Positions 4,784 through 17,552 of a DNA stretch of 64,000 bases are shown piece by piece. This stretch comes from a virus (Duplodnaviria; Caudoviricetes). Position 1 is the stretch's first letter; each line of letters begins with the position of its first letter. The translations under genes were made by a program, and so were the position numbers. The stretch lies in the IMG/VR virus record IMGVR_UViG_3300031993_000008, positions 64,001 through 128,000 of that record; one strand, written 5' to 3'. The notes under the pieces were generated by a model, which was not told the origin of the DNA, ran no database searches, and saw only the letters and a program-made list of their open reading frames with translations.

Positions 4784-5338
4784 TTACTCACCCTCCTTCT
4801 TTGCTTTTTTCTTTTTCTTCTTTTTAATCTCTTTCTTGTCTGTAAGTTTGAACTCCTTACTCGGGTCAACCACAACCTTGGCCCTGGACATAAAGTCCTT
4901 ACAGAGTAGCATCCTACTCCTGTAGGTCTTAGTTCCTGACAAATCAGAAATCTTCAGGTCAACCAGTTCATCCTTGTATTCCTTTCCATTGAACTTGATG
5001 TCAACCTTTATGACCGGTCTTTCAGTTGCCTTTCCATGATGCCAAATTTTGATATGTTTCACAATATCATACTCTTTCTTCTCATCATTGAAATCAAATG
5101 AAACCTTACCATCCTTCTCTTCAAAGTCCTGGACTATGATAGCATTGTAAGCAGTGTTACCGGTATCAAGTTTTGCCTTCATCTTTCCAAGACCGATAAC
5201 CTCAATTACCTCCTTGAATCCGGAAACCTCCTTGCCATCATGTGTTTCCTTTGATGTAGGATGAACAGGAGTTTCAGGTATAAAGGATTCCACCTTCACA
5301 CCTCTACTCTTTATATATTCATCAAATTTCTTTAACAT
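4784..5338 (-). CDS. RimK-associated retropepsin-like protease (RimB/PF05618-like)
   Basis: KAKLDTGN catalytic motif, ERPVIKVDIKFNG, MLLCKDFM..VVVDPS; next to RimK. Confidence 0.75.
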   Translation of the reverse strand: MLKKFDEYIKSRGVKVESFIPETPVHPTSKETHDGKEVSGFKEVIEVIGLGKMKAKLDTGNTAYNAIIVQDFEEKDGKVSFDFNDEKKEYDIVKHIKIWHHGKATERPVIKVDIKFNGKEYKDELVDLKISDLSGTKTYRSRMLLCKDFMSRAKVVVDPSKEFKLTDKKEIKKKKKKKAKKEGE

Positions 5339-5351
5339 AATATTATTGAAT

Positions 5352-5507
5352 TTATTTAAATCCTAATTGGTCTTTATTGGATGTGATTTTACCATTACCA
5401 CTTTCCTGCCAAAGTTTTTTCACCTCAGCAACCTTCTGCTTGAATTCTCTTCTCAACTTCTGTTTCAAAGAAAGCGGTGTTGAATCATTATGACAATTAC
5501 ATCCCAT
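5352..5507 (-). CDS. Small hypothetical protein (51 aa, MGCNCHN...; not in ORF track)
   Basis: ATG abuts the RimK stop (TAAATG) and the ORF fills the gap to the protease gene. Confidence 0.6.
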   Translation of the reverse strand: MGCNCHNDSTPLSLKQKLRREFKQKVAEVKKLWQESGNGKITSNKDQLGFK

Positions 5508-7295
5508 TTAATCTACCTTATTATATGGTGCCAGGTCAACCTCATGACCATAGAAGGCTTCTATCACACCAGCAACCTTACATGCATTCTCAAATGAGAT
5601 TGTATCATTGTTGAAGTAAGCATAATTCTCTTTACACTCAATGAGTTCATTTCCCTTGTAACTCAATGTCCAGTTATCCTTACTTTCATTTACACTCTCA
5701 ATCTTCCAGTTGTCATTCTCATATACTGACTGTTTACCCTGGATGAATCTTGTGATGAGTTTCCTCAATCCACCAAGTCTGATGTTCTCACCTTCTTCTA
5801 TTATCTTACTTTCATTTAACATAACACTTTCATCAAGTTTCTCAACAGGTACATCAAATCCTGTGGTGTTGTCTGTGAGGATGAATGAGTTCTCTACTAC
5901 AACAGCCTTGTCTGAAATTCTGTGAAGCAGCTTACTACCACCTATTGCAATATTGATATTGATATTGTCATTTACAGTCTTCAAGACAACAAGTTCATTC
6001 TTGTATATGGTACCATTGAACCTGATGTTCATCTCAACCATAGGATCTCCCTTTCTCATACCTGAAAGTTCCATCTTGTAAGTGACACCATTGAATACGA
6101 ATGTCACGTCATCGTCCTTCGCATTTACTGAACTACACTGGAGTTCTGTGAATGTCTTGTTGTCATCAAACTTCATAGCAGCATCAACACCATCACCCAA
6201 ATCCTTGAAAGTGACAGTTTCATACTTACCAATCTGATCTGAATCATACTTGGTGTACTTGAAGTCCTTGAACATATCCATCAATGTACCTACAACATCA
6301 TCACCGGCAGCAGTTGTAATACCCTTGGTACCAGGAGATGAGTTCACCTCAATCACATATGACTGCTTTGTCCTGGAATCCATAATAAGGTCAACACCGG
6401 CCCAACGACAACCTGTTGCCTTGGCTGCCATCTTTGCAATCTTCTCCTGTTCTGATGTAAGATGACCCTTCTCTGCTGTTGAACCCAGTGAGTAGTTACT
6501 TCTGAAATCGCCGGCAAGCTGGTTTCTCTGCATACATCCGATAATCTCAAAATTGTCAATACCTGGGGTCATCCTTTCAAATCCCCTATAGAGTACATGG
6601 ATACGGAGGTCATAATCTGAATTGATTTTCTCCTGGAGAAGAATATCTGCCTTTGGTACAAGTGCAAATATTGCCTGAAGGACAGATTTAAGTGAAATCA
6701 TTGAATCTATCTGGGCAACACCAATACCCTGTGTTCCCTTTGTAATCTTGATGATAAGAGGAAAACCACCACCTACAGCAGCAACCTTATCTTCAAGTTT
6801 GTTCATTGAAGAGTTGGTAACAACAGCGGTCTTTGGTGTAGGAACACCGGCAGCTTTAAGTTTCTTGTATGTGATGAACTTATCCTCACAGTTGTCAATT
6901 GCATCAAGAGTATTCAATACAAAGAATCCGTCATTCTGGAGTTCAGTAAGGAAATCCCTTGACTCGATATTCTTCAAAACTGTTCTTCTTGGAACAATGA
7001 TGGTGTTGTTTGGATTGAGGGTGAAAGTCTTTTTTGTTTCACCATTCTCAACTACATTGTAATCATCATCACTACCCTTTGAGATTGTAGATGAAGAAGG
7101 ATCAATTGTGACCAATTTCAATCCTGCCTTTTTGGCTGCCTCCTCAAAGAAAAACATTGAATTGGAACTCTTTGTGGTCTTTTCTGCCCTACTTGACAAG
7201 AAAACAACCTGGATGTTCTTTGCTTTCTTACTTTCATTAAGAGGAGCATATCCTTTACTTGAATATTTCATAGTCATAAATGTATATAATTTCAA
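5508..7295 (-). CDS. rimK: RimK-family ATP-grasp ligase fused to a degenerate protease-like domain
   Basis: DKFITY..GVPTPKT, PLIIKITKGTQGIGV, LLQEKI..DLRIHV, FRSNYSLG, AGVDLI..VIEVNSSPG. Confidence 0.85.
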   Translation of the reverse strand: MKLYTFMTMKYSSKGYAPLNESKKAKNIQVVFLSSRAEKTTKSSNSMFFFEEAAKKAGLKLVTIDPSSSTISKGSDDDYNVVENGETKKTFTLNPNNTIIVPRRTVLKNIESRDFLTELQNDGFFVLNTLDAIDNCEDKFITYKKLKAAGVPTPKTAVVTNSSMNKLEDKVAAVGGGFPLIIKITKGTQGIGVAQIDSMISLKSVLQAIFALVPKADILLQEKINSDYDLRIHVLYRGFERMTPGIDNFEIIGCMQRNQLAGDFRSNYSLGSTAEKGHLTSEQEKIAKMAAKATGCRWAGVDLIMDSRTKQSYVIEVNSSPGTKGITTAAGDDVVGTLMDMFKDFKYTKYDSDQIGKYETVTFKDLGDGVDAAMKFDDNKTFTELQCSSVNAKDDDVTFVFNGVTYKMELSGMRKGDPMVEMNIRFNGTIYKNELVVLKTVNDNININIAIGGSKLLHRISDKAVVVENSFILTDNTTGFDVPVEKLDESVMLNESKIIEEGENIRLGGLRKLITRFIQGKQSVYENDNWKIESVNESKDNWTLSYKGNELIECKENYAYFNNDTISFENACKVAGVIEAFYGHEVDLAPYNKVD

Positions 7296-7300
7296 TATAG

Positions 7301-7308
7301 TATTTATG
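7301..7308 (-). promoter_or_regulatory. Late promoter CATAAATA (T4 gp55-type TATAAATA variant), fused to the upstream terminator
   Basis: Recurs upstream of most structural genes; hairpin GAGTGAGA-atcaa-TCTCACTC at about 7314-7334. Confidence 0.7.
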
Positions 7309-7337
7309 AAAAAGAGTGAGAATCAATCTCACTCCCT

Positions 7338-9269
7338 TTATCTTCTATCCATCTGGTTGTATGTCCTGTCAACATACTCTCTGAAATCATCCACATAGTC
7401 ATAAACCTTTGCATTTGGTGAATGTACACAAGGTTCATCTTCCTTCCTGAATTTCTTTGATTTCTTCTTTTTCTTCTTTATCTGTTTAAGGAACATTGTA
7501 TATGGTGCAACCTGGTGGTAAACTATTCCTGTTGGTGATGGAAGGTCTCCTGATCCAGGCTCACCATTTGGACCTGGAAAATAAGCAGCACCCATTCCAC
7601 CCACACTGGCAGGTGTGGCACCACCCGGAACACCCTCACATTCATTTGTGATATTTTTTTGTCTTTCTGCCTCTTCCATTTCAACATATCCTGAAAGTCT
7701 GTCTGACAATTCATCAGCCCAATAGTTCCTGACATAATTCAATATACCTTCAATGTTGGCATCCTGTGACACAACACCCTCTCTGTCATTACTTTCAATA
7801 TAATCACAAAGACCATCAAGTGAAAACTCATAATCATCATATACTATCCTAGTAGCATAAAAAACAAGGAACTGTTCAAGATTATCCATATCTTCAAATG
7901 ATAACTCATCCTCCTTCTTTATTTTCTCACCACTACCCCTGTCCAATATACCTTTCCAGACTGATTCATTTGTAGGATGCCATGCAACATATTCTGTCAT
8001 CTTTTCCTCCCATGTGAGGTCACCCCACATATCACTTGGATTGACATAGTTGTCTTCACATCCTCTGGAGTATAATACATCCATTCTATCACTTTCATCC
8101 AATGAATCTGCCCACCAAGTATCAAGTGTATCATCTATGGTCTTACCTGGTTGCTTCTCAAAACCTATTTTCTTTATTTTCTCATTTTCTGAATTAATCT
8201 CCTCATCTATGACTTTTTTAACTTTTCCCCAACATCTCTTGGCAAAATCAACCTTCCTCACTACATATTCCTTTGCTTTATTGTCAATGATGTTCCATCT
8301 TTCCTTGCAGAACCTTTCAAAGTCATAGAGGATGTTTTTGTACTGTTCATAATACACTATCCTTTCCACAAATGACCTGATGTCATATTTAATGTCATCA
8401 ACAGTAAGGTCATCCTCCTTTCTTACACTGTCTCCTGAACCCCTGTCAAGCATACCACCCCAGGTTGATTCATTCACATATTGACTGTTCAGGGAATCGA
8501 CAACATCATCAATTTGCTTATTTAAATTATCAATCGCATCTTCTATGGCAGGAAGTACAGTATCATCCCAGTGTTCTTTGGTGTAGTCCAGGAGATCATC
8601 CATATTGTAATCAATTGATGACACCCTTGGTTTATCCTTATAATCTTTTATAAAGGCTTTGAATTCAGAATAACTACCCACAGTATAATCATGTGTGTAT
8701 TCTATTGCTGCAAATATTTCTATATATGCAGAAAGGGCGTTCAGAAGATTTTCTGATATTTTGTCTTCTTTCCTTTTGTCATCTCCTCTACCTCTGTCAA
8801 GTATTCCACCCCAGGCGGATTCATTGACAAGCATATTATCTTTATTATTCAAAAAGAATTCAATTACATCTATGTATGTCTTATTGGTACAAGTACCATC
8901 TTCTTCTTTTATAACTCTTCTACATGTACCTATATTTTCTACATTAAACTTTTCTGATAAAGCCCACAAAAATGAGTGTCTTATTTTTACACCTACACCA
9001 GACCAAGACAACACAATATGATCCATTTCACCATCCTCATTATAAATGGTCTTTAATGATATATTACCTATTATATCAACACAAATTTCCCATGAATTGA
9101 ATTTACCTGTATACTTATCTAAATAAAATATCCTTTTCTCATATTTGGACTTGATATAATCATAAAGACCATCAACATCAAGGAGATTGATATCATCCTC
9201 CTTTCTGATAGTCTCTCCTGTACCCCTATCAAGGACATCACCCCAGACTGATTCACTGATTTTCTTCAT
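7338..9269 (-). CDS. Modular polyprotein with four ESxWGxxLDRGxG repeats (putative internal head protein)
   Basis: Motif at the N-terminus and three internal positions, each internal copy preceded by NE; late promoter at 9275-9282. Confidence 0.85.
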   Translation of the reverse strand: MKKISESVWGDVLDRGTGETIRKEDDINLLDVDGLYDYIKSKYEKRIFYLDKYTGKFNSWEICVDIIGNISLKTIYNEDGEMDHIVLSWSGVGVKIRHSFLWALSEKFNVENIGTCRRVIKEEDGTCTNKTYIDVIEFFLNNKDNMLVNESAWGGILDRGRGDDKRKEDKISENLLNALSAYIEIFAAIEYTHDYTVGSYSEFKAFIKDYKDKPRVSSIDYNMDDLLDYTKEHWDDTVLPAIEDAIDNLNKQIDDVVDSLNSQYVNESTWGGMLDRGSGDSVRKEDDLTVDDIKYDIRSFVERIVYYEQYKNILYDFERFCKERWNIIDNKAKEYVVRKVDFAKRCWGKVKKVIDEEINSENEKIKKIGFEKQPGKTIDDTLDTWWADSLDESDRMDVLYSRGCEDNYVNPSDMWGDLTWEEKMTEYVAWHPTNESVWKGILDRGSGEKIKKEDELSFEDMDNLEQFLVFYATRIVYDDYEFSLDGLCDYIESNDREGVVSQDANIEGILNYVRNYWADELSDRLSGYVEMEEAERQKNITNECEGVPGGATPASVGGMGAAYFPGPNGEPGSGDLPSPTGIVYHQVAPYTMFLKQIKKKKKKSKKFRKEDEPCVHSPNAKVYDYVDDFREYVDRTYNQMDRR

Positions 9270-9296
9270 AATAATATTTATGAAAAAAGGTGAGAA

Positions 9297-10163
9297 TCAC
9301 TTCTCACCTTTCAGTATCTTATCCAGTACATTGTCTGGAATCTTGTCTATATAAATCCTCTCATATGTTCCGTCATCCTTCAACCATATCAGTACCCTGT
9401 CAATAATCTTGATTCCTATTGATTCAAGGAGTCTCTGATATATATTGAACTGGAGTATGTAATGTGAAAGAGGTTCATCAACATACTTTGACACACACCC
9501 CTTCATCATAATCCCATTCTGTCTGTTATAATCCTTAATGAGAGACTTGTTGGTCTTCCAGTCCATAATGACATATGCATCATTGTCACTGTCATAAAAC
9601 AGAAGGTCACATGTACCGCAAATTCTCCTCACATCTTTTATATATTCTGTTGACAGTTTGAACTCCGCACCTACAGGATGATAGTTGGATTCCAGTTCAT
9701 CATAGAATTTCTTTATTGCTTCCTCCTTTGGATAAGTTGGAACCATTGTGTTGAATTCCTCAATATACTGTGACTTGTTTTCCTCACATATAAGTTCAGG
9801 ATGACCACACAGGACATTGGTATATGATTCACCGAAACAGTGTGTCCTGGTACCGGAGATTGTGGATTTCAGGTTGTTGAGTTTCCATTCCTTCTGTACT
9901 TCAGACTTCACCTTTTTCCACTTAAGCGCATAATCAGTTGCCTTCTGATCCCAATCAACTTCCGGTTCATATTCCTTGATTATATTACTTACAGGTGTAT
10001 ATTCCTCTTCCCCTATGAAGTACCTGTGACTATCCTCAAAGAACTCTATATCACCAAACTTGTCAAGTATGAGATCTCTGCATGCACTTACAACAGAATC
10101 AATCTTATTCTTATCCTGCACCTTCTTTTCAAAGGTGTTATTGAAAATATCATCAAAATCCAT
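9297..10163 (-). CDS. PD-(D/E)XK exonuclease (RecB/Cas4-like)
   Basis: GTRTH, ICGTCDLLF..IMDWKT, YILQFNIY motifs. Confidence 0.8.
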   Translation of the reverse strand: MDFDDIFNNTFEKKVQDKNKIDSVVSACRDLILDKFGDIEFFEDSHRYFIGEEEYTPVSNIIKEYEPEVDWDQKATDYALKWKKVKSEVQKEWKLNNLKSTISGTRTHCFGESYTNVLCGHPELICEENKSQYIEEFNTMVPTYPKEEAIKKFYDELESNYHPVGAEFKLSTEYIKDVRRICGTCDLLFYDSDNDAYVIMDWKTNKSLIKDYNRQNGIMMKGCVSKYVDEPLSHYILQFNIYQRLLESIGIKIIDRVLIWLKDDGTYERIYIDKIPDNVLDKILKGEK

Positions 10164-11557: not shown

Positions 11558-12367
11558 TTAGATAAGACCCCACTCTGCCAGGGCTTCAAATCCACCGATA
11601 GAGTCAATATATGCCTTTGCTTCCTCTACAATCTTACTGTAAGGGATACCATTCACCTCTGTATCACCAATGGCACAGAAGAATGTCTGTGTTCTACCAG
11701 TTCTTTGGGCTTCCAGGAAAGCATAGATGTTAACAGACACATCTGCCTTTGATATATCCTTTCCATTGATACCACCACCAGTAACACCACGACCCATATC
11801 TGAACCAAGCTTGCGGTTGACAGCACCAGTATCAACATTTGTTCCACCAGTCCAGTCACCCAGAGGATTGACAGTTATGGTATATTCCGGATAGTTATAC
11901 TGGAGTTCTGCCTTGAGTTCTTCTGAATTTGCACAACTCTGACATACAATCAAAGTCTTTGTCTTGTCATCAATGACATACTTTCCATCTGTGGGATACT
12001 TCTCATATATCTTCTGTACAATATCCCTCAACTCCATCTCTTCCGGAAGTATAGGTTCACCCTTGAAGATACCATTGTCGCCACAACGGATCTCACCATC
12101 CTGGTTGTGTGCCAGGTGTTCATCCTGGGGAACATTGATGAGTTTGAGTTTTACATCATCACCTGCTATCCTCTTGACAACCGGTAACACATTCTCATCA
12201 TTGAAATTGAAACTTGACTCTGCAATAATGGTACAAAGTCCATGACCAAGGAGTACCTCTATTGCAACCTTGGGATTTTGTTGATTAGCATATGCAAGGT
12301 CAACCAATGCACCAGCAATGCGATCTGCCACCTTATCAGGATGGCTGGGGTTTACTTTCTCAAACAT
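11558..12367 (-). CDS. metK: Compact S-adenosylmethionine synthetase-like protein
   Basis: HPDKVADRI, GDNGIFKG, DTGAVNRKL, GGGINGKDISKADVS; 269 aa versus about 390 aa in cellular MetK. Confidence 0.8.
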   Translation of the reverse strand: MFEKVNPSHPDKVADRIAGALVDLAYANQQNPKVAIEVLLGHGLCTIIAESSFNFNDENVLPVVKRIAGDDVKLKLINVPQDEHLAHNQDGEIRCGDNGIFKGEPILPEEMELRDIVQKIYEKYPTDGKYVIDDKTKTLIVCQSCANSEELKAELQYNYPEYTITVNPLGDWTGGTNVDTGAVNRKLGSDMGRGVTGGGINGKDISKADVSVNIYAFLEAQRTGRTQTFFCAIGDTEVNGIPYSKIVEEAKAYIDSIGGFEALAEWGLI

Positions 12368-12450: not shown

Positions 12451-13221
12451 ATGAAGAAATTAAGTAAAATAGATGAATCAGTCTGGGGTGGTATCCTTGA
12501 CAGAGGAACAGGTGAAATCAATAGAAAGGAGTATGGTAAAAAAGTCCATACCTGTATAGATATTGACATTTACATTAAAGATTCATCCTGTCAGTATGAC
12601 AAATACATAAAACACATCCTGGATTATGATAACTATAAATTACCTTGCAGAATTTGTATAGGTTTTGAACGAATCAGTAATCCAACATATACTCCTGAGG
12701 ATTTGGCAAAAATGAAAAACTTTGAAATGCCATATGATTATGTACTTGATGAATACACCAAACCTAAAAATGAATTTGACTATCTTGTTGCATGGTTTTG
12801 GAAATATAATGAATTTATGGACCACAATACCAATGCTGACATCACTGAAGATGATTATATGTCAATATGTAGAGGTATAGCAATCAAACTAAAAGAGATA
12901 GGTAATCGTATTGAACATATGCCTGGAAACAAAACCAATATTATTGGTCAGGATGGTGTATCCAGTAAGTATTCCAATTTTGCCTTGAAATTGATGGATG
13001 AAAAAAATACTTTCCACTGGAAACATGCACATAATGGCAAATCCTTACTTGATTACAAAGAAGATATGATTCATGAATTTCCGGAATTGAAAGATGTTGA
13101 TTTCTTAATGTGGCCATTCAATCAATTCCCTTATGTAAACATTGGTCTTCCAATCACATCAGTAACTGTCAAAGACTTCAAAAAATATGAAGAATATACT
13201 CATAATTGGTTTACAGTATAA
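12451..13221 (+). CDS. WGGxLDRG-leader protein, cassette 1
   Basis: MKKLSKIDESVWGGILDRGTGEINRKE; cargo is paralogous to the next gene. Confidence 0.85.
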   Translation: MKKLSKIDESVWGGILDRGTGEINRKEYGKKVHTCIDIDIYIKDSSCQYDKYIKHILDYDNYKLPCRICIGFERISNPTYTPEDLAKMKNFEMPYDYVLDEYTKPKNEFDYLVAWFWKYNEFMDHNTNADITEDDYMSICRGIAIKLKEIGNRIEHMPGNKTNIIGQDGVSSKYSNFALKLMDEKNTFHWKHAHNGKSLLDYKEDMIHEFPELKDVDFLMWPFNQFPYVNIGLPITSVTVKDFKKYEEYTHNWFTV

Positions 13222-14003
13222 TGAAGAAATTAAGTAAAATAGATGAATCTACCTGGGGTAATATGTTGGATAGAGGTACTGGTGGTGTAATCAAAAAAGA
13301 AGATGGTAAACTTGTACACACATGTCTTGATGTAGATATAGCCATCAAAGACCAGAAATGTGATTATAATACACTCATTAAAGAAATATTGAATGATGAT
13401 TTTATTAGTGGATTTTACCAAGGGGTGGTAATACTAAATACACAACAGAAATCATATTCACCAGAAGAGATGGCAAACATAAGAAAATTTGAAGCACCAT
13501 ATGCATATCTCATTTATGATGGTAAACATGGTACAAGTCTTGTTGCTGAATTCTGGGCATATTCTGAATTCCAGGATTCTGACCTTACTACTGATTTTAT
13601 TGAAAGTGTATCGGAAGAGGATTACATATCCATCTGTAAAGGTATTGCCACAAAACTGAAAGAAGTCGGAGGAGACATTGCACAACTTCCAAGAAGACAT
13701 TCCACAATTTCTAACACAAAAGACCGTGATTTCAATGATGAATATGTGTTTAAACTCATTGATGAATCAGATATTGCATGGTGGGGAGACTATCCTGATC
13801 CAGAAGGAAGGACTCTTACTGATTTTGAAACGGATATGTTCACAGAGTATCCGGAATTAGCAGATGTTGATTTCTTCACTTGGACATTTTATAGCGGATG
13901 TAATATAGGTATCCCTATCAATTATGACACACTTGTTAATTTCAAGAAATATAAAGAATTTACTAAAAACTGGTTTAAAGTAACAGATGAAGAAACTGAG
14001 TAA
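13221..14003 (+). CDS. WGGxLDRG-leader protein, cassette 2
   Basis: Likely start is ATG 13221 (TAATG coupling); MKKLSKIDESTWGNMLDRGTG; shares VHTC.D.DI.IKD, DY.SIC.GIA.KLKE, PEL.DVDF, NIG.PI with cassette 1. Confidence 0.85.
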   Translation: MKKLSKIDESTWGNMLDRGTGGVIKKEDGKLVHTCLDVDIAIKDQKCDYNTLIKEILNDDFISGFYQGVVILNTQQKSYSPEEMANIRKFEAPYAYLIYDGKHGTSLVAEFWAYSEFQDSDLTTDFIESVSEEDYISICKGIATKLKEVGGDIAQLPRRHSTISNTKDRDFNDEYVFKLIDESDIAWWGDYPDPEGRTLTDFETDMFTEYPELADVDFFTWTFYSGCNIGIPINYDTLVNFKKYKEFTKNWFKVTDEETE

Positions 14004-14982
14004 AATAGATGAATCAACCTGGGGTGATATACTTGACAGAGGTTCAGGAGATACTGTGAGAAAAGAGGATGATGTGAATCATTTTGAGTTCTATGATTTT
14101 GTTCATTATCTTGAAGAGAAATATCCTTCCAAAAACAGAGGTACTGGAATTGTATCTGGGCAATCAATTAAAAACAAAAATATTCTCTATTTATCTATAC
14201 CAATTAAAAGATTTGATAATAAAACTCAATGGTTAAGAATTGAGGTTGATAAAGAAACATTAAAGTATACAGGAAACATAGAGGTTAGCAAATCCTTACA
14301 TACCGAATATGAATATACTTTGTTTTCTAAAAAGATATTGGGTAAAAAGTATAAGATTCTGTATAATTTTAGATTTGAAGACTATATATTGAGACCTATT
14401 GATGGTGAGATAACAAACAGTAGCATTGTGGAATTGATTGACATGTTTTTGCATAATGTTGATAACCCATTATTGAATATAGATGTCAATGAATCCACCT
14501 GGGGTGGTATCCTTGACAGGGGTGCTGGTGATGCCATAAGAAAGGAAGACTTACCGGAACAAAATAAGGAACACTGGTGGAGAAACATTGAATTACCAAA
14601 TGTTCCAAAGTATAAAAAAGATGAGCTCAAGGCATTGGATCTGATGTATGATTTTGCTGTGGATAAGATTAGAAAAAGATTCAATGTTTCCTGGCCATAC
14701 CAGATAGTGTTTCACTTTGATGGTGAACCATATTGGGATTTAAATATTGAACACATAACCCCACGAGGTTATGATACTTTTGCTATGTATGCTCATGGAC
14801 CCAGAGCGCCCTGGCAGATTTATTTTTCAGATATGTCAATGGGTGAAAAGAGAAGTATAAGATACAGACTTGAAAAGAAGAAGTTCTATGTATATCCATA
14901 TAAATATGGAGATGGAAGAGTAGAGTATCATTTAAGGGAACAAAGTACCTATAATAATGAAAAAGGAATTGAATTGAAATGA
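13987..14982 (+). CDS. WGGxLDRG-leader protein, cassette 3 (two modules)
   Basis: N-terminal motif plus internal VNESTWGGILDRGAGDAIRKED. Confidence 0.85.
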   Translation: MKKLSKIDESTWGDILDRGSGDTVRKEDDVNHFEFYDFVHYLEEKYPSKNRGTGIVSGQSIKNKNILYLSIPIKRFDNKTQWLRIEVDKETLKYTGNIEVSKSLHTEYEYTLFSKKILGKKYKILYNFRFEDYILRPIDGEITNSSIVELIDMFLHNVDNPLLNIDVNESTWGGILDRGAGDAIRKEDLPEQNKEHWWRNIELPNVPKYKKDELKALDLMYDFAVDKIRKRFNVSWPYQIVFHFDGEPYWDLNIEHITPRGYDTFAMYAHGPRAPWQIYFSDMSMGEKRSIRYRLEKKKFYVYPYKYGDGRVEYHLREQSTYNNEKGIELK

Positions 14983-15611
14983 TAAAAATAGGCTTGGATT
15001 TCTCACTTGTATCCCCGGCAATATGTGTTTACAAGAATGGAGAGTATTCTTTCATCTCCTTCTTTGATGATTATGGAAAGGACTGGAAAGGAGGAAAGAT
15101 AAAGGCATTCAACTACCATAGGGATCTGTCAAAGTTTATGGAGATGAATCCCTACACAAGACATATTGAAAAGAAGGATTACAGGGAGGAACAGAGGACA
15201 AAGATGAGGGCTGCGAAGATGATCGCAAATAAGATCTCCAACAGACTTGTTGAGATTGTTGGTGGTGAGGAGGTCATCATAGGTCTTGAAGGATTCTCAT
15301 ATGGCAGTATTTCATCATCCACCCTGGACCTGGCACTCTTCAACTCATTTCTCAGGATAAAACTCCTTGAGGATTTCGGTGAGGATTGTCTTGTAATCAT
15401 CTCCCCTACAGAAGGTAAGAAAAACCTTTCAGGTAAGGGAAATGCAAAGAAGGAGGATATGATCCAGGCCTTCATTGAGAACAGGACAAATGACCCGGAT
15501 ATTGAGAGATGTCCATTCTGGAAGTTCTGTAAGGAGAATGAACTTGATTATAAGAACATAAAACCTATTGATGACCTTGTGGATTCATATGGTATATTGA
15601 TAAGTATATGA
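14979..15611 (+). CDS. RuvC-like Holliday junction resolvase
   Basis: IGLDFSL, IGLEGFSYGS, SPTEGKK..GKGNAKKEDM, DDLVDSYGI. Confidence 0.8.
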   Translation: MIKIGLDFSLVSPAICVYKNGEYSFISFFDDYGKDWKGGKIKAFNYHRDLSKFMEMNPYTRHIEKKDYREEQRTKMRAAKMIANKISNRLVEIVGGEEVIIGLEGFSYGSISSSTLDLALFNSFLRIKLLEDFGEDCLVIISPTEGKKNLSGKGNAKKEDMIQAFIENRTNDPDIERCPFWKFCKENELDYKNIKPIDDLVDSYGILISI

Positions 15612-16183
15612 AAAAGTTAAGTAAAATAGATGAGTCAACCTGGGGCAATCTCCTGGACAAAGGTGCCGGAGAAAAAGAAGCAAAGGAAGATACATTCAAT
15701 TTCAACTTCTATCAAATAAAACCGGTTGATTTGGGTCCAGAATTTCCATTCCTTTGGGCAGATACTGACCTGATTGCCAATGATGAAATATACTTTGATT
15801 GGGACACATTACAGAGAATGCTTCCCCAAATTAAGAAAACAGGATGGAGACTTCCCTATTCACCAAACCAAATGAGAGATGTTATTAAACTCATAAACAC
15901 ATCACCTAATCTGAAAACAGTATGGCACCGCAGGGCATTTGGAATGATAGAGAATACAGACACTGGTGAATATGTATCATTTCCTACAGGTAGTCAATTT
16001 GGAGAAACCTATTGGTGTGAAGATGATTATCATTCAACCAATCCAGGAAGACAAATTGAAAATGAAAGGGTATTTGAAATAGGTGAAAACTATTATCAAG
16101 ATGGTAAAAAGATGGTTTTACTTTCAACTAATAATATGGAAAAAACAAGAACAGCAAGAATAAGACTCGTAAAGGACAAATGA
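15608..16183 (+). CDS. WGGxLDRG-leader protein, cassette 4 (DUF1566/Fib_succ_major-like cargo)
   Basis: Leader, then PVDLG..LWADTDL, GWRLP, YW, IRLVKD. Confidence 0.8.
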   Translation: MKKLSKIDESTWGNLLDKGAGEKEAKEDTFNFNFYQIKPVDLGPEFPFLWADTDLIANDEIYFDWDTLQRMLPQIKKTGWRLPYSPNQMRDVIKLINTSPNLKTVWHRRAFGMIENTDTGEYVSFPTGSQFGETYWCEDDYHSTNPGRQIENERVFEIGENYYQDGKKMVLLSTNNMEKTRTARIRLVKDK

Positions 16184-17010
16184 AGAAGTTAAGTAAGTTA
16201 TTGAATGAATCTACCTGGGGTGGTATGTTAGACAGAGGTAGGGAAGATTCTGTAAGTAAACAGGATTTTGGTGCTGAACTGGAAATTGATGGTACAAAAT
16301 ATATATTTGCCAAAGATTTCTGGAATATGGGTGATATATATGAAAAGGAAAATGAAAGTGAATGGACATGTTTTGCCTTCAATAAAATGCCAAATGGAAG
16401 TAAAATCATAACCGGTGACACTGATGCTGCCGGAGTTTTCGGTAGAGACAAATGGGATATTGGTGAAAATGAATATGAGGTATATGTATTGAGGAATTAC
16501 TTTGATAAAACAAAACAGCAATTGGTAGAGAGTTCAATAAATTGGGGTGACATTGATGAAATAGGAATTCCTGAAATCAAAAATATTCTTGTAAAGTATA
16601 TAGAAGAAGTATACACAAAACATATGTCTGATTTTGCATATCACTGGATTCAGGAATTAGAATCAAAAGATTGGTCTCAGGATTTAATAATATGTTGCAA
16701 TATCTACAATGAAGATGATATTCAAAATGGTGAAGATTCTAATATAGATACCATTCAAGATGAATTTAATCACAATGTCATTGAAAAAATACATATCATT
16801 TCATTTTCATCATTGGAACACACAGATTGGGATGAAAGACTTGAAAAGGCATTGACAGATGAATATACAAAGATAGGATATGTCAAGTCAGAGGAATTTG
16901 ACCTGGATCCATTTAATGACCCAGGAAATACAATATGTCTTACATTTGTCCTTTTAGGTGAAGAAAAAGAGGATGATGAAGAAGATGATGAAAACCATAG
17001 AGATTATTGA
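16180..17010 (+). CDS. WGGxLDRG-leader protein, cassette 5
   Basis: MKKLSKLLNESTWGGMLDRGRED; acidic cargo of unknown function. Confidence 0.85.
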   Translation: MKKLSKLLNESTWGGMLDRGREDSVSKQDFGAELEIDGTKYIFAKDFWNMGDIYEKENESEWTCFAFNKMPNGSKIITGDTDAAGVFGRDKWDIGENEYEVYVLRNYFDKTKQQLVESSINWGDIDEIGIPEIKNILVKYIEEVYTKHMSDFAYHWIQELESKDWSQDLIICCNIYNEDDIQNGEDSNIDTIQDEFNHNVIEKIHIISFSSLEHTDWDERLEKALTDEYTKIGYVKSEEFDLDPFNDPGNTICLTFVLLGEEKEDDEEDDENHRDY

Positions 17011-17012
17011 TT

Positions 17013-17552
17013 ATGAAGAAATTAAGTAAAATAGATGAGTCAGTCTGGGGTGGTATCCTTGATAGGGGAACCGGTGAAAAGGTAAAGAAAGAGGATAACT
17101 TGGGCAATATCTTATCACTCAAACCTATTGATATGGGTGGTTCTGTCCTCTGGGCAGACCAGAACCTGATATATGATGGAGAAGAGATATTCACATATGA
17201 TGAGGCAAATGACCTCATATCCCATTCAGAATGGAGACTTCCAACATTAAAGGAGGTTGCTGAACTATATGGACATAACTTATACTATGATTCAAAATAT
17301 ATATACCTTGATGATCCCAAAAAAATATCATTCAAGAAATGTGGTTGTGGATATCCTAAAGATATTATAATTGATAATGGTAAATGTTTTTATGGATGGA
17401 CATCTGAACCATATGTAAAAAATCCAAGAAATATCAATGTATTTGTCATAGACCATTATACAGTAGATTATACAGGAATTGAACCAGCAAGTATCCCTGT
17501 TACCCAAGATAGAGACACCAGATGTTGTATAAGACTGGTCAGAGACAAATAA
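17013..17552 (+). CDS. WGGxLDRG-leader protein, cassette 6 (DUF1566/Fib_succ_major-like cargo)
   Basis: Leader, then PIDMGGSVLWADQNL, WRLPTLKEVAEL, YGWTSE, CIRLVRD. Confidence 0.8.
   Translation: MKKLSKIDESVWGGILDRGTGEKVKKEDNLGNILSLKPIDMGGSVLWADQNLIYDGEEIFTYDEANDLISHSEWRLPTLKEVAELYGHNLYYDSKYIYLDDPKKISFKKCGCGYPKDIIIDNGKCFYGWTSEPYVKNPRNINVFVIDHYTVDYTGIEPASIPVTQDRDTRCCIRLVRDK

Follow-up and report, generated by a model that had tools for sequence, protein, structure and literature searches.

In the window, by which we mean the whole stretch of 64,000 nucleotides (nt) analysed here (bases 64001-128000 of a 248-kb IMG/VR record with a CheckV completeness of 67%), an open reading frame (ORF) of 643 amino acids (aa) on the minus strand (7338-9269, stop codon included) appears to encode a multi-module precursor delimited by copies of a conserved 20-residue element, the tag. 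Combining the sequence data with structure prediction, we suggest that this ORF probably specifies a late precursor of head-packaged cargo, i.e. a polyprotein of the 'beads on a string' type. We favor this model because (i) the junctions between modules match the maturation sites of the phage itself, (ii) the tags are located in linkers, (iii) the modules are permuted among relatives, and (iv) the gene is preceded by a putative late promoter. From these features we infer packaging, cutting, injection and a binding partner of the tag.

A regular-expression scan of the six frames identified the tag, S-x-W-G-x-x-L-D-R-G-x-G-x3-[RK]-K-E-D, at residues 7, 151, 268 and 436 of the 643-aa protein, i.e. 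at the N-terminus and at the three internal sites where the initial annotation had noticed it. With an arrow marking the predicted cut, the four sites read KKISE↓SVWGDVLDRG, LVNE↓SAWGGILDRG, YVNE↓STWGGMLDRG and PTNE↓SVWKGILDRG, and [I/V/T]-x-Glu precedes each copy. A fifth junction, ITNE↓CEGVPGG at residue 543/544, opens the segment that had been described as Gly/Pro-rich and then poly-Lys, and this is what is found from residue 544 onwards. Against 1.84 billion library proteins, a profile built from 70 tags scores the 643-aa protein with E = 1.2e-46 and four matched stretches and, therefore, the tag repeats are far beyond chance. The motif occurs 11 times in the window, seven times at an N-terminus and four times internally, and two further N-terminal copies are found elsewhere in the record.

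Along the chain, the six-residue leader MKKISE, which ends in I-S-E at P3-P1 (9252-9269), is followed by tag 1 (residues 7-26; 9192-9251), module 1 (residues 27-147, a predicted alpha/beta domain; 8829-9191), junction LVNE↓S with tag 2 (residues 148-170; 8760-8828), the helical module 2 (residues 171-264; 8478-8759), junction YVNE↓S with tag 3 (residues 265-287; 8409-8477), the helical module 3 (residues 288-432; 7974-8408), junction PTNE↓S with tag 4 (residues 433-455; 7905-7973), the helical module 4 (residues 456-540; 7650-7904), and junction ITNE↓C with a conserved basic C-terminal tail (residues 541-643, isoelectric point (pI) 9.1 from residue 544; 7341-7649). The tail contains a copy of a peptide from the N-arm of the capsid protein (VGGMGAAYFPG ... 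GSGD, residues 556-575; 7545-7604) and a poly-Lys run followed by an invariant FRKEDEPC (7452-7487). All of these elements are on the minus strand. If all five junctions were cut, the predicted products would be four proteins of 16.8, 13.5, 20.1 and 12.7 kDa with pI values of 4.2-4.8 and an 11.1-kDa basic tail. Internal translation starts were considered as the origin of separate products and rejected, as the internal tags lack a Met or a start codon.

In an AlphaFold2 model of the 643-aa protein built with 24 homologues, four confident domains (residues 26-147, 170-261, 286-432 and 452-540) have predicted local distance difference test (pLDDT) values of 75-90, and the segments with pLDDT < 50 (residues 1-25, 148-169, 262-285 and 433-451) coincide with the tags. 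Region 541-629 has low confidence or is predicted to be disordered and is followed by a terminal helix. All five junctions are located in segments with pLDDT < 50, and five of the seven [ILVMT]-x-E-[SAGC] sites of the protein are found there. Because the tags fall in low-confidence linkers, the model describes the tag as a linear element in flexible linkers without a role in one repeating fold, a possibility that the initial annotation had raised against itself. The likeness that it had reported between modules 2, 3 and 4 holds in part: all three are helical in the model, and once the tags are removed modules 2 and 4 have one stretch of 27 residues in common (33% identity; E = 5e-4, calculated for a very small database), but module 3 matches neither of them, so that the likeness outside the tags was overstated. 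The resemblance between module 1 and module 1 of the 331-aa ORF at 13987-14982 was borne out (30% identity over 175 aa, E = 1.5e-19).

Module 1 folded alone reaches a pLDDT of 89.7. In VIA-align it resembles the C-terminal double-wing domain of T4 MotA with Z 8.1 (6k4y_M, root-mean-square deviation 2.8, 97 residues) and Z 7.4 (5jlt_A), values of Z that chance arrangements can also reach, and in Foldseek the match to MotA has a probability of 0.90-0.94 and a template modeling (TM) score of 0.55-0.63, but E > 0.1. We regard the MotA-like fold of this predicted domain as a marginal match and as a lead only. Foldseek searches of PDB and BFVD with the whole 643-aa model returned nothing at E <= 0.001, Pfam (E <= 0.01) and PHROGs gave no family for the 643-aa protein or its tagged neighbours, and tblastn and megablast against 50,697 phage records gave no match.

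The source phage is an uncultured T4-like jumbo phage. The record encodes a gp23-type major capsid protein (98.5 bits) and a prohead protease of the Peptidase_S77 (T4 gp21) type, whose score of 36.6 bits exceeds the cut-off. It also has genes for a T4-like family B DNA polymerase, an SbcD-like nuclease, a RuvC-like resolvase and a RimK-type ligase. Among deposited phages, the closest capsid proteins are those of an uncultured 462-kb phage (44% identity) and of the Lak phages of Prevotella (33%), followed by those of Tenacibaculum, Chryseobacterium, Flavobacterium and Sphingomonas jumbo phages; based on these nearest relatives, the host is likely from the Bacteroidota. Four genomes were fetched whole for comparison of the tags: the source record (G000), G001, G002 (an IMG/VR record of 411.6 kb) and G004. 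Their capsid proteins are 91-97% identical to the G000 copy. G003, an IMG/VR record of 62 kb, is more distant, with a capsid protein that is 86% identical.

The capsid protein of G000 has SLNE↓S at the position that matches the maturation cut of T4 gp23, and this site is kept in five genomes. The protease is encoded outside the window (G000:C1:38380-40389, minus strand) as a prohead protease-scaffold fusion of 669 residues that is likewise kept in five genomes: the S77 domain ends at RVNE↓S and is followed by an acidic linker and a scaffold-like coiled coil, in which approximately nine [H/N]-x-D-Y-L-A-E repeats each offer a potential L-x-E site; a Pro/Thr/Glu-rich spacer and a conserved C-terminal part come next. 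The VNE↓S at the end of the S77 domain is conserved in all five genomes, and the L/V-N-E↓S sites of the capsid protein and the protease occupy the positions at which their T4 and SPN3US homologues are cleaved; the related SPN3US protease is known to cleave itself C-terminally (PMC10052503). The T4, phiKZ and SPN3US proteases cut after Glu, as do all characterised members of the family (PMC5694885). As judged from the sequence, all junctions of the 643-aa protein fit the T4 rule of an aliphatic residue, any residue and Glu before a small residue, and they match the phage's own L/V-N-E↓S sites.

This pattern extends to the other tagged proteins. In 72 tags scored together with their upstream residues from the four genomes, P1 is Glu in 71, the exception being a Met that is probably the true start of that protein; P1' is Ser in all 72, P2 is mostly Asn, and P3 is I, V, L or M in 66 and Thr in five. 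In 170 representative proteins P1 is Glu in 516/516 tags, a figure with some circularity, since that Glu is part of the search profile. The leaders ahead of the N-terminal tags vary in sequence and length and yet end in Glu (MKKLSKIDE, MIPDFKTYIGE, MKKISE, MGVIKTCSEYLEE); the commonest lengths are 6, 9, 10, 11 and 13 residues. Some resemble the T4 targeting sequence MKTYQEFIAE (PMC8442874), and the T4 internal proteins carry a leader of approximately 10 residues that is removed (PMC8442874, PMC3012670). Leaders resembling this capsid targeting sequence (CTS) are also present at the start of other late ORFs (MGIVKSFKEFVNE, MGVIKTCSEYLEE, MNNIKTFTEFLLE, MNNIKSFDEF; G000:C1 starts 916 (-), 17209 (-), window 24315 (+), 126756 (+)), and only the ORF at 17209 has a tag as well. 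In SPN3US, the abundant ejection proteins gp54 and gp53, once cut by the prohead protease, have the mature N-termini (E)SLWDDIK and (E)GWKETL (PMC10052503, Figure 3 legend); a Trp is thus found two to three residues past the cut, as in the tag, which could reflect coincidence or a shared requirement.

Among relatives of the 643-aa protein, the modules vary in number and order. Its 30 homologues have 356-1111 residues, and most end in the same tail of approximately 100 residues. Ahead of this tail they carry between one and eight tagged modules in permuted order, or the modules exist as separate genes, which answers the question raised by the initial annotation of whether module number varies. 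Module type 1 is the first unit in the G000 protein and the third in several homologues. Module families are found both as stand-alone tagged genes and as internal modules: the stand-alone tagged gene at 15608-16183 corresponds to an internal module of the homologue P0003. One homologue bears leucine-rich BspA-type repeats. In G003 the gene (approximately 56.3-57.0 kb, minus strand) consists of one module and the tail without a tag, and this form is probably close to the ancestral gene; the G003 protein starts with MNEIRKED, lacks the Trp tag and carries a degenerate version of the capsid N-arm peptide (VAGIGPITFPD).

In the search with the tag profile, at least 783 clusters (50% identity) matched at E <= 0.001. 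Tag counts were taken from the best 150 matches listed, which have two to seven matched stretches each, and a local rescan of 170 proteins (these 150 and the earlier homologues) gave two to seven tags each with a median spacing of 152 residues. Given these counts across tagged clusters, multi-tag chains are, as far as sequence can tell, a general habit of the clade and not peculiar to the 643-aa gene. The profile found nothing in LR756500.1 (44% capsid identity, the nearest in INPHARED) or in Lak-A2, in a search that had no positive control; Lak phages use another genetic code. Within the window, six tagged genes form a fast-evolving tandem array (12451-17552), in which the gene for the RuvC-like resolvase (14979-15611, plus strand) is the sole untagged one.

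The spelling of the tag tracks the genome and not the cargo. The consensus is S-T-W-G-G-I-L-D-R-G-T-G in G000 (12 copies), S-A-W-G-D-M-M-R-R-G-S-G in G001 (10 copies), S-V-W-N-D-I-R-R-R-G-N-G in G004 (24 copies) and S-V-W-A-D-I-H-K-R-S-N-G in G002 (40 copies). Measured over the ten variable positions, the identity of the tag core is 0.69-0.78 inside one genome irrespective of the cargo family and 0.35-0.40 between genomes, homologous modules included. Conserved tag residues in G000 use the same codon in 0.50 of pairs compared to 0.48 expected from codon usage; by the same synonymous-codon measure, capsid genes reach 0.73-0.81 between genomes. Because the G000 rate is close to the expectation, the uniformity of the tag in this genome is kept by selection on the peptide and not by recent gene conversion, which we reject as its sole cause in G000.

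The claim that the motif behind the cut has a function of its own gains support from this genome-specific conservation and from 14 tagged proteins without a leader. These proteins begin with M-S-x-W or a close variant; 12 are small proteins of G002, one is from G004 and one from G000. A fifteenth case in G004, the protein with Met at P1, probably starts at an internal Met-Ser. The 12 proteins of G002 (55-173 aa) start with M-S-[I/V]-W-x-D-[I/M/L]-H-[K/R]-[R/K]-S-N-G and are encoded at approximately 29-67 kb and at 286.7 kb. Removal of the initiator Met before Ser is the usual rule, and the permissive residues have been listed (PMC10052503). Loss of Met from M-S-x-W would leave the same N-terminus as a cut after Glu, which fits with a separate function of the motif. 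The leaderless G002 proteins may be made in the cell and not packaged. A split between early promoters for leaderless and late promoters for leader-bearing tagged genes was considered: within 120 nt upstream, 13 of the 14 leaderless genes, among them 11 of the 12 in G002, lack the motif CATAAATA described below; however, the genes are in tight arrays and the regional density of the motif is not clearly different.

The tail is present once per genome. Its parts follow each other in the order x-E↓C-[E/D]-G-V-P-G-G, copy of the capsid N-arm, poly-Lys, FRKEDEPC and terminal helix, and E543 and C544 are invariant in 24 homologues. The N-arm copy begins 12 residues past the tail junction, and the same peptide is found 13 residues past SLNE↓S in the capsid protein. 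In the cut T4 capsid protein, residues 66-105 are disordered, point into the unexpanded head and probably touch the scaffold, and after expansion they form the external N-arm (PMC9546572). Because the copy lies at the same distance from a matching cut site, the analogy suggests that the tail may borrow the contact of the capsid protein, either for entry into the prohead or for docking to its shell. Strict co-variation of the copy with the capsid protein was rejected: the capsid N-arm is almost invariant and the copy drifts (GAISFPG in G002, GSAYFPG in G004). An ESM Atlas search with the tail gave only a score of 0.75 to an unnamed viral cluster with TM < 0.4.

The 643-aa gene is flanked by two similar cassettes on the minus strand. 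Upstream, a hairpin with a T-run (9285-9312; -15.8 kcal/mol, z = -5.3) looks like a terminator at the end of the preceding exonuclease gene and is followed by the late-promoter-like motif CATAAATA (9275-9282), 13 nt before the ATG. Downstream, a second hairpin with a T-run and CATAAATA (7301-7339; -16.2 kcal/mol, z = -4.8) would end this unit and start the RimK gene. The consensus of T4 late promoters is TATAAATA, from which CATAAATA differs by one base. The motif is located 12-44 nt upstream of approximately 50 ORFs of the genome, including the genes for the prohead protease and the tail sheath, and the homologous genes of G001 and G004 also have the cassette in front; in G002, CATAAATA alone is seen. 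Based on the cassettes at both ends, we suggest that the gene is transcribed late.

Downstream of the gene (4784-7295, minus strand) there is an ATP-grasp ligase of the RimK type (595 aa), which has a long extension at its C-terminus and whose gene has its own hairpin/CATAAATA cassette. The RimK-type protein (5508-7295) has PLNE↓S near its N-terminus, and a 184-aa protein (4784-5338) combines a D-T-G retropepsin-like motif with a poly-Lys tail. On the other side, a 269-aa protein (11558-12367, minus strand) matches in Pfam only the N-terminal domain of S-adenosylmethionine synthetase, and its full length matches PHROG 1569; cellular MetK is much longer.

Combining these observations, the polyprotein model would include the following steps: (i) the precursor would be made from its own late promoter; (ii) it would enter the core of the prohead, with the repeated tag and the C-terminal tail as candidate determinants; (iii) the activated gp21-type protease would cut after Glu at ISE↓S (residue 6), VNE↓S (150), VNE↓S (267), TNE↓S (435) and TNE↓C (543); (iv) this would yield four acidic folded proteins starting with Ser-x-Trp and an 11-kDa basic tail starting with Cys; and (v) the pieces would be retained in the head and would probably reach the host together with the DNA. 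Each piece would keep its 20-residue tag, which could then serve as an address specific to the genome and recognised by a single partner or by further tags. Cleavage of the chain by the head protease had been proposed in the initial annotation, and at the level of sequence and prediction this part gains support from the gp21-family protease, the fit of the sites, their position in linkers and the modularity, whereas the notion of four modules that are alike went too far.

Several observations weigh against the model. The 643-aa gene is located among genes for replication and repair, outside the head module. The modules are acidic (pI 4.2-4.8), unlike the basic internal proteins of T4. The conserved part is downstream of the predicted cut, whereas in T4 it is upstream and discarded, so that the analogy would be incomplete. 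Synonymous-site identity of the tags exceeds the expectation in G001 (0.69 vs 0.51) and G004 (0.62 vs 0.49) and, therefore, recent duplication or gene conversion probably plays a part in these two genomes. Across five genomes whose tags differ, the S77 domain and the scaffold repeats hardly vary; being nearly invariant, neither can be the partner that tracks the variable tag positions, and we reject both as the co-evolving reader for these positions. Finally, in the 70 tags the Glu of the terminal K-E-D is as invariant as the Glu before the tag, with the next Asp nearly so, which makes a cut at this second Glu, or no cut at all, possible.

Were the chain not cut, it could act as a multi-domain, multivalent adaptor or scaffold, in the head or in the cell, with tags as linkers that bind a common partner or each other. 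We consider this unlikely, but it would account for tags that are modelled as short low-confidence helices in linkers, for conservation that runs 20 residues past the supposed cut and thus further than a protease site needs, and, by mutual binding, for genome-wide uniformity of the tag. Against it, the invariant Glu-Ser and the aliphatic P3 before the tags match the maturation sites in the phage's capsid protein and protease, leaders of varying sequence and length always end in Glu and leaderless forms begin exactly at Ser; free permutation and the existence of modules as separate genes also fit better with independent products. Alternatively, the tag could be a removable propeptide with cuts on both sides, at x-x-E↓S and at [RK]-K-E↓D, which would leave mature modules without a tag. 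The invariant second Glu is consistent with this, as are the propeptides of 20-30 residues that end in Glu at the N-terminus of T4-type head proteins (PMC5694885), and the leaderless M-S-x-W proteins fit as well, with the propeptide at their very start. However, the P3 of the second site would be Arg/Lys and not aliphatic, unlike all sites of this phage that homology can place (the capsid L-N-E, the protease V-N-E and the scaffold L-A-E), and R-K-E-D is also present in the tail after poly-Lys and at the start of the tag-less G003 protein, which suggests a binding or charge motif instead; we judge this variant to be quite improbable.

We give even less credit to cleavage of the junctions by another protease, either the DTG retropepsin-like protein encoded two genes downstream or the metallopeptidase-vWA protein of a MoxR module. 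The genes for the RimK-type ligase and the DTG protease directly follow the polyprotein gene, and a DUF2201-type metallopeptidase with a MoxR-like AAA+ partner is part of a late block, in which it belongs to the most divergent components. The gp21 family, however, has Glu at P1 and an aliphatic P3 as its signature, and the capsid protein bears the same site where gp21 cuts T4 gp23. Moreover, aspartic proteases associated with RimK are known to trim poly-Glu tails and are not known for endoproteolysis after a single Glu. In total, we favor the polyprotein model with cuts by the gp21-type protease at the five junctions.

For the tag itself we put forward a tentative proposal: its active form might be a free N-terminal Ser-x-Trp that serves as a genome-specific address code. 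Virion-borne cargo could acquire this N-terminus by the cut after Glu, and proteins made in the cell could acquire it by losing Met from M-S-x-W, although this is only a possibility. It is equally speculative that all tags of a genome, 12 to approximately 40 copies, co-evolve with a single reader, distinct from the protease and the scaffold, or with each other, self-association of tags being the alternative to a separate partner. A ranking of orthologues by divergence in search of the reader had no statistical power with only four genomes. A late block on the minus strand (G000:C1:49736-58696) encodes a MoxR-like AAA+ protein with DUF285 repeats, the DUF2201 metallopeptidase and two further proteins of 588 and 660 aa. 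With 45-87% identity to relatives, compared to 91-97% for the capsid protein, this block diverges more than the rest of the head-proximal region, and at least three of its four proteins have x-N-E↓S near the N-terminus. The proteins of this block are possible candidates for tag readers.

A close parallel is provided by the T4 internal proteins IPI, IPII, IPIII and Alt with their CTS and gp21. In both systems a gp21-family protease is paired with a short leader ending in aliphatic-x-Glu on unrelated small proteins, and the genes are in tandem fast-evolving arrays (here 12451-17552). The expected fate is also the same, i.e. the proteins would enter the head, undergo a single cut, stay there and be injected (PMC3012670, PMC8442874). 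The two systems differ in that no sequence similarity was found (Pfam, PHROGs; tblastn, 50,697 phage records), that most of the conserved element here follows the cut and would remain attached to the cargo, that up to seven or eight cargo units share one chain with a site and a tag at each joint, that the modules are acidic and only the tail (pI 9.1) is basic whereas the T4 proteins are basic, and that the spelling of the tag differs between close genomes.

Polyvalent proteins (Iyer et al. 2017, PMC5512222), which combine two to fifteen distinct domains in one phage polypeptide, also have many unrelated domains per chain that are shuffled between relatives, and it is predicted that they are packaged, transferred along with the DNA and set free by proteolysis. 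They have recognisable enzymatic domains, such as zincin-like peptidase, ADP-ribosyltransferase or ParB-like domains, and often their own peptidase, whereas no module here matches Pfam or PHROGs, and release would here depend on the head protease at a repeated cassette of site and tag that is absent from the description in that work. The ejection proteins of phiKZ-like phages (SPN3US gp53/gp54, phiKZ inner-body proteins) resemble the tagged proteins as paralogous head proteins that a gp21-related protease cleaves behind Glu, in some cases at more than one site, and in gp53/gp54 by the Trp soon after the cut (PMC10052503), which may be coincidence. In these proteins, however, a single mature C-terminal part remains once a long N-terminal propeptide has been degraded, cleavage follows the motif A/S/G-x-E, and neither a repeated tag nor a chain with several cargo units has been reported. 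The polyproteins of RNA viruses and retroviruses similarly have a protease site at each domain boundary of one product and give rise to equimolar products; there is no evolutionary relation, and the phage discussed here is a dsDNA tailed phage with ordinary genes in which the polyprotein would be accessory cargo only. In the published literature that we searched, the T4 targeting sequence, polyvalent proteins and processed ejection proteins of giant phages are described, and the site-plus-tag cassette is not.

If the polyprotein model is correct, huge phages, probably of Bacteroidota, would deliver many small proteins to the host from few precursor chains, and the repeated cassette of site and tag would make cargo modules freely exchangeable between genes and genomes. 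In this way the principle of capsid targeting in T4 would be extended to a polyprotein format. The tag flags at least 783 protein clusters (50% identity) as candidate injected effectors and could serve as a portable handle to package foreign proteins into phage heads. Its genome-specific spelling would offer an uncommon opportunity to follow a short linear motif together with its reader through their co-variation in natural genomes and, should the tentative address code turn out to be true, the system would be re-addressable between phage lineages and could load or route arbitrary proteins.

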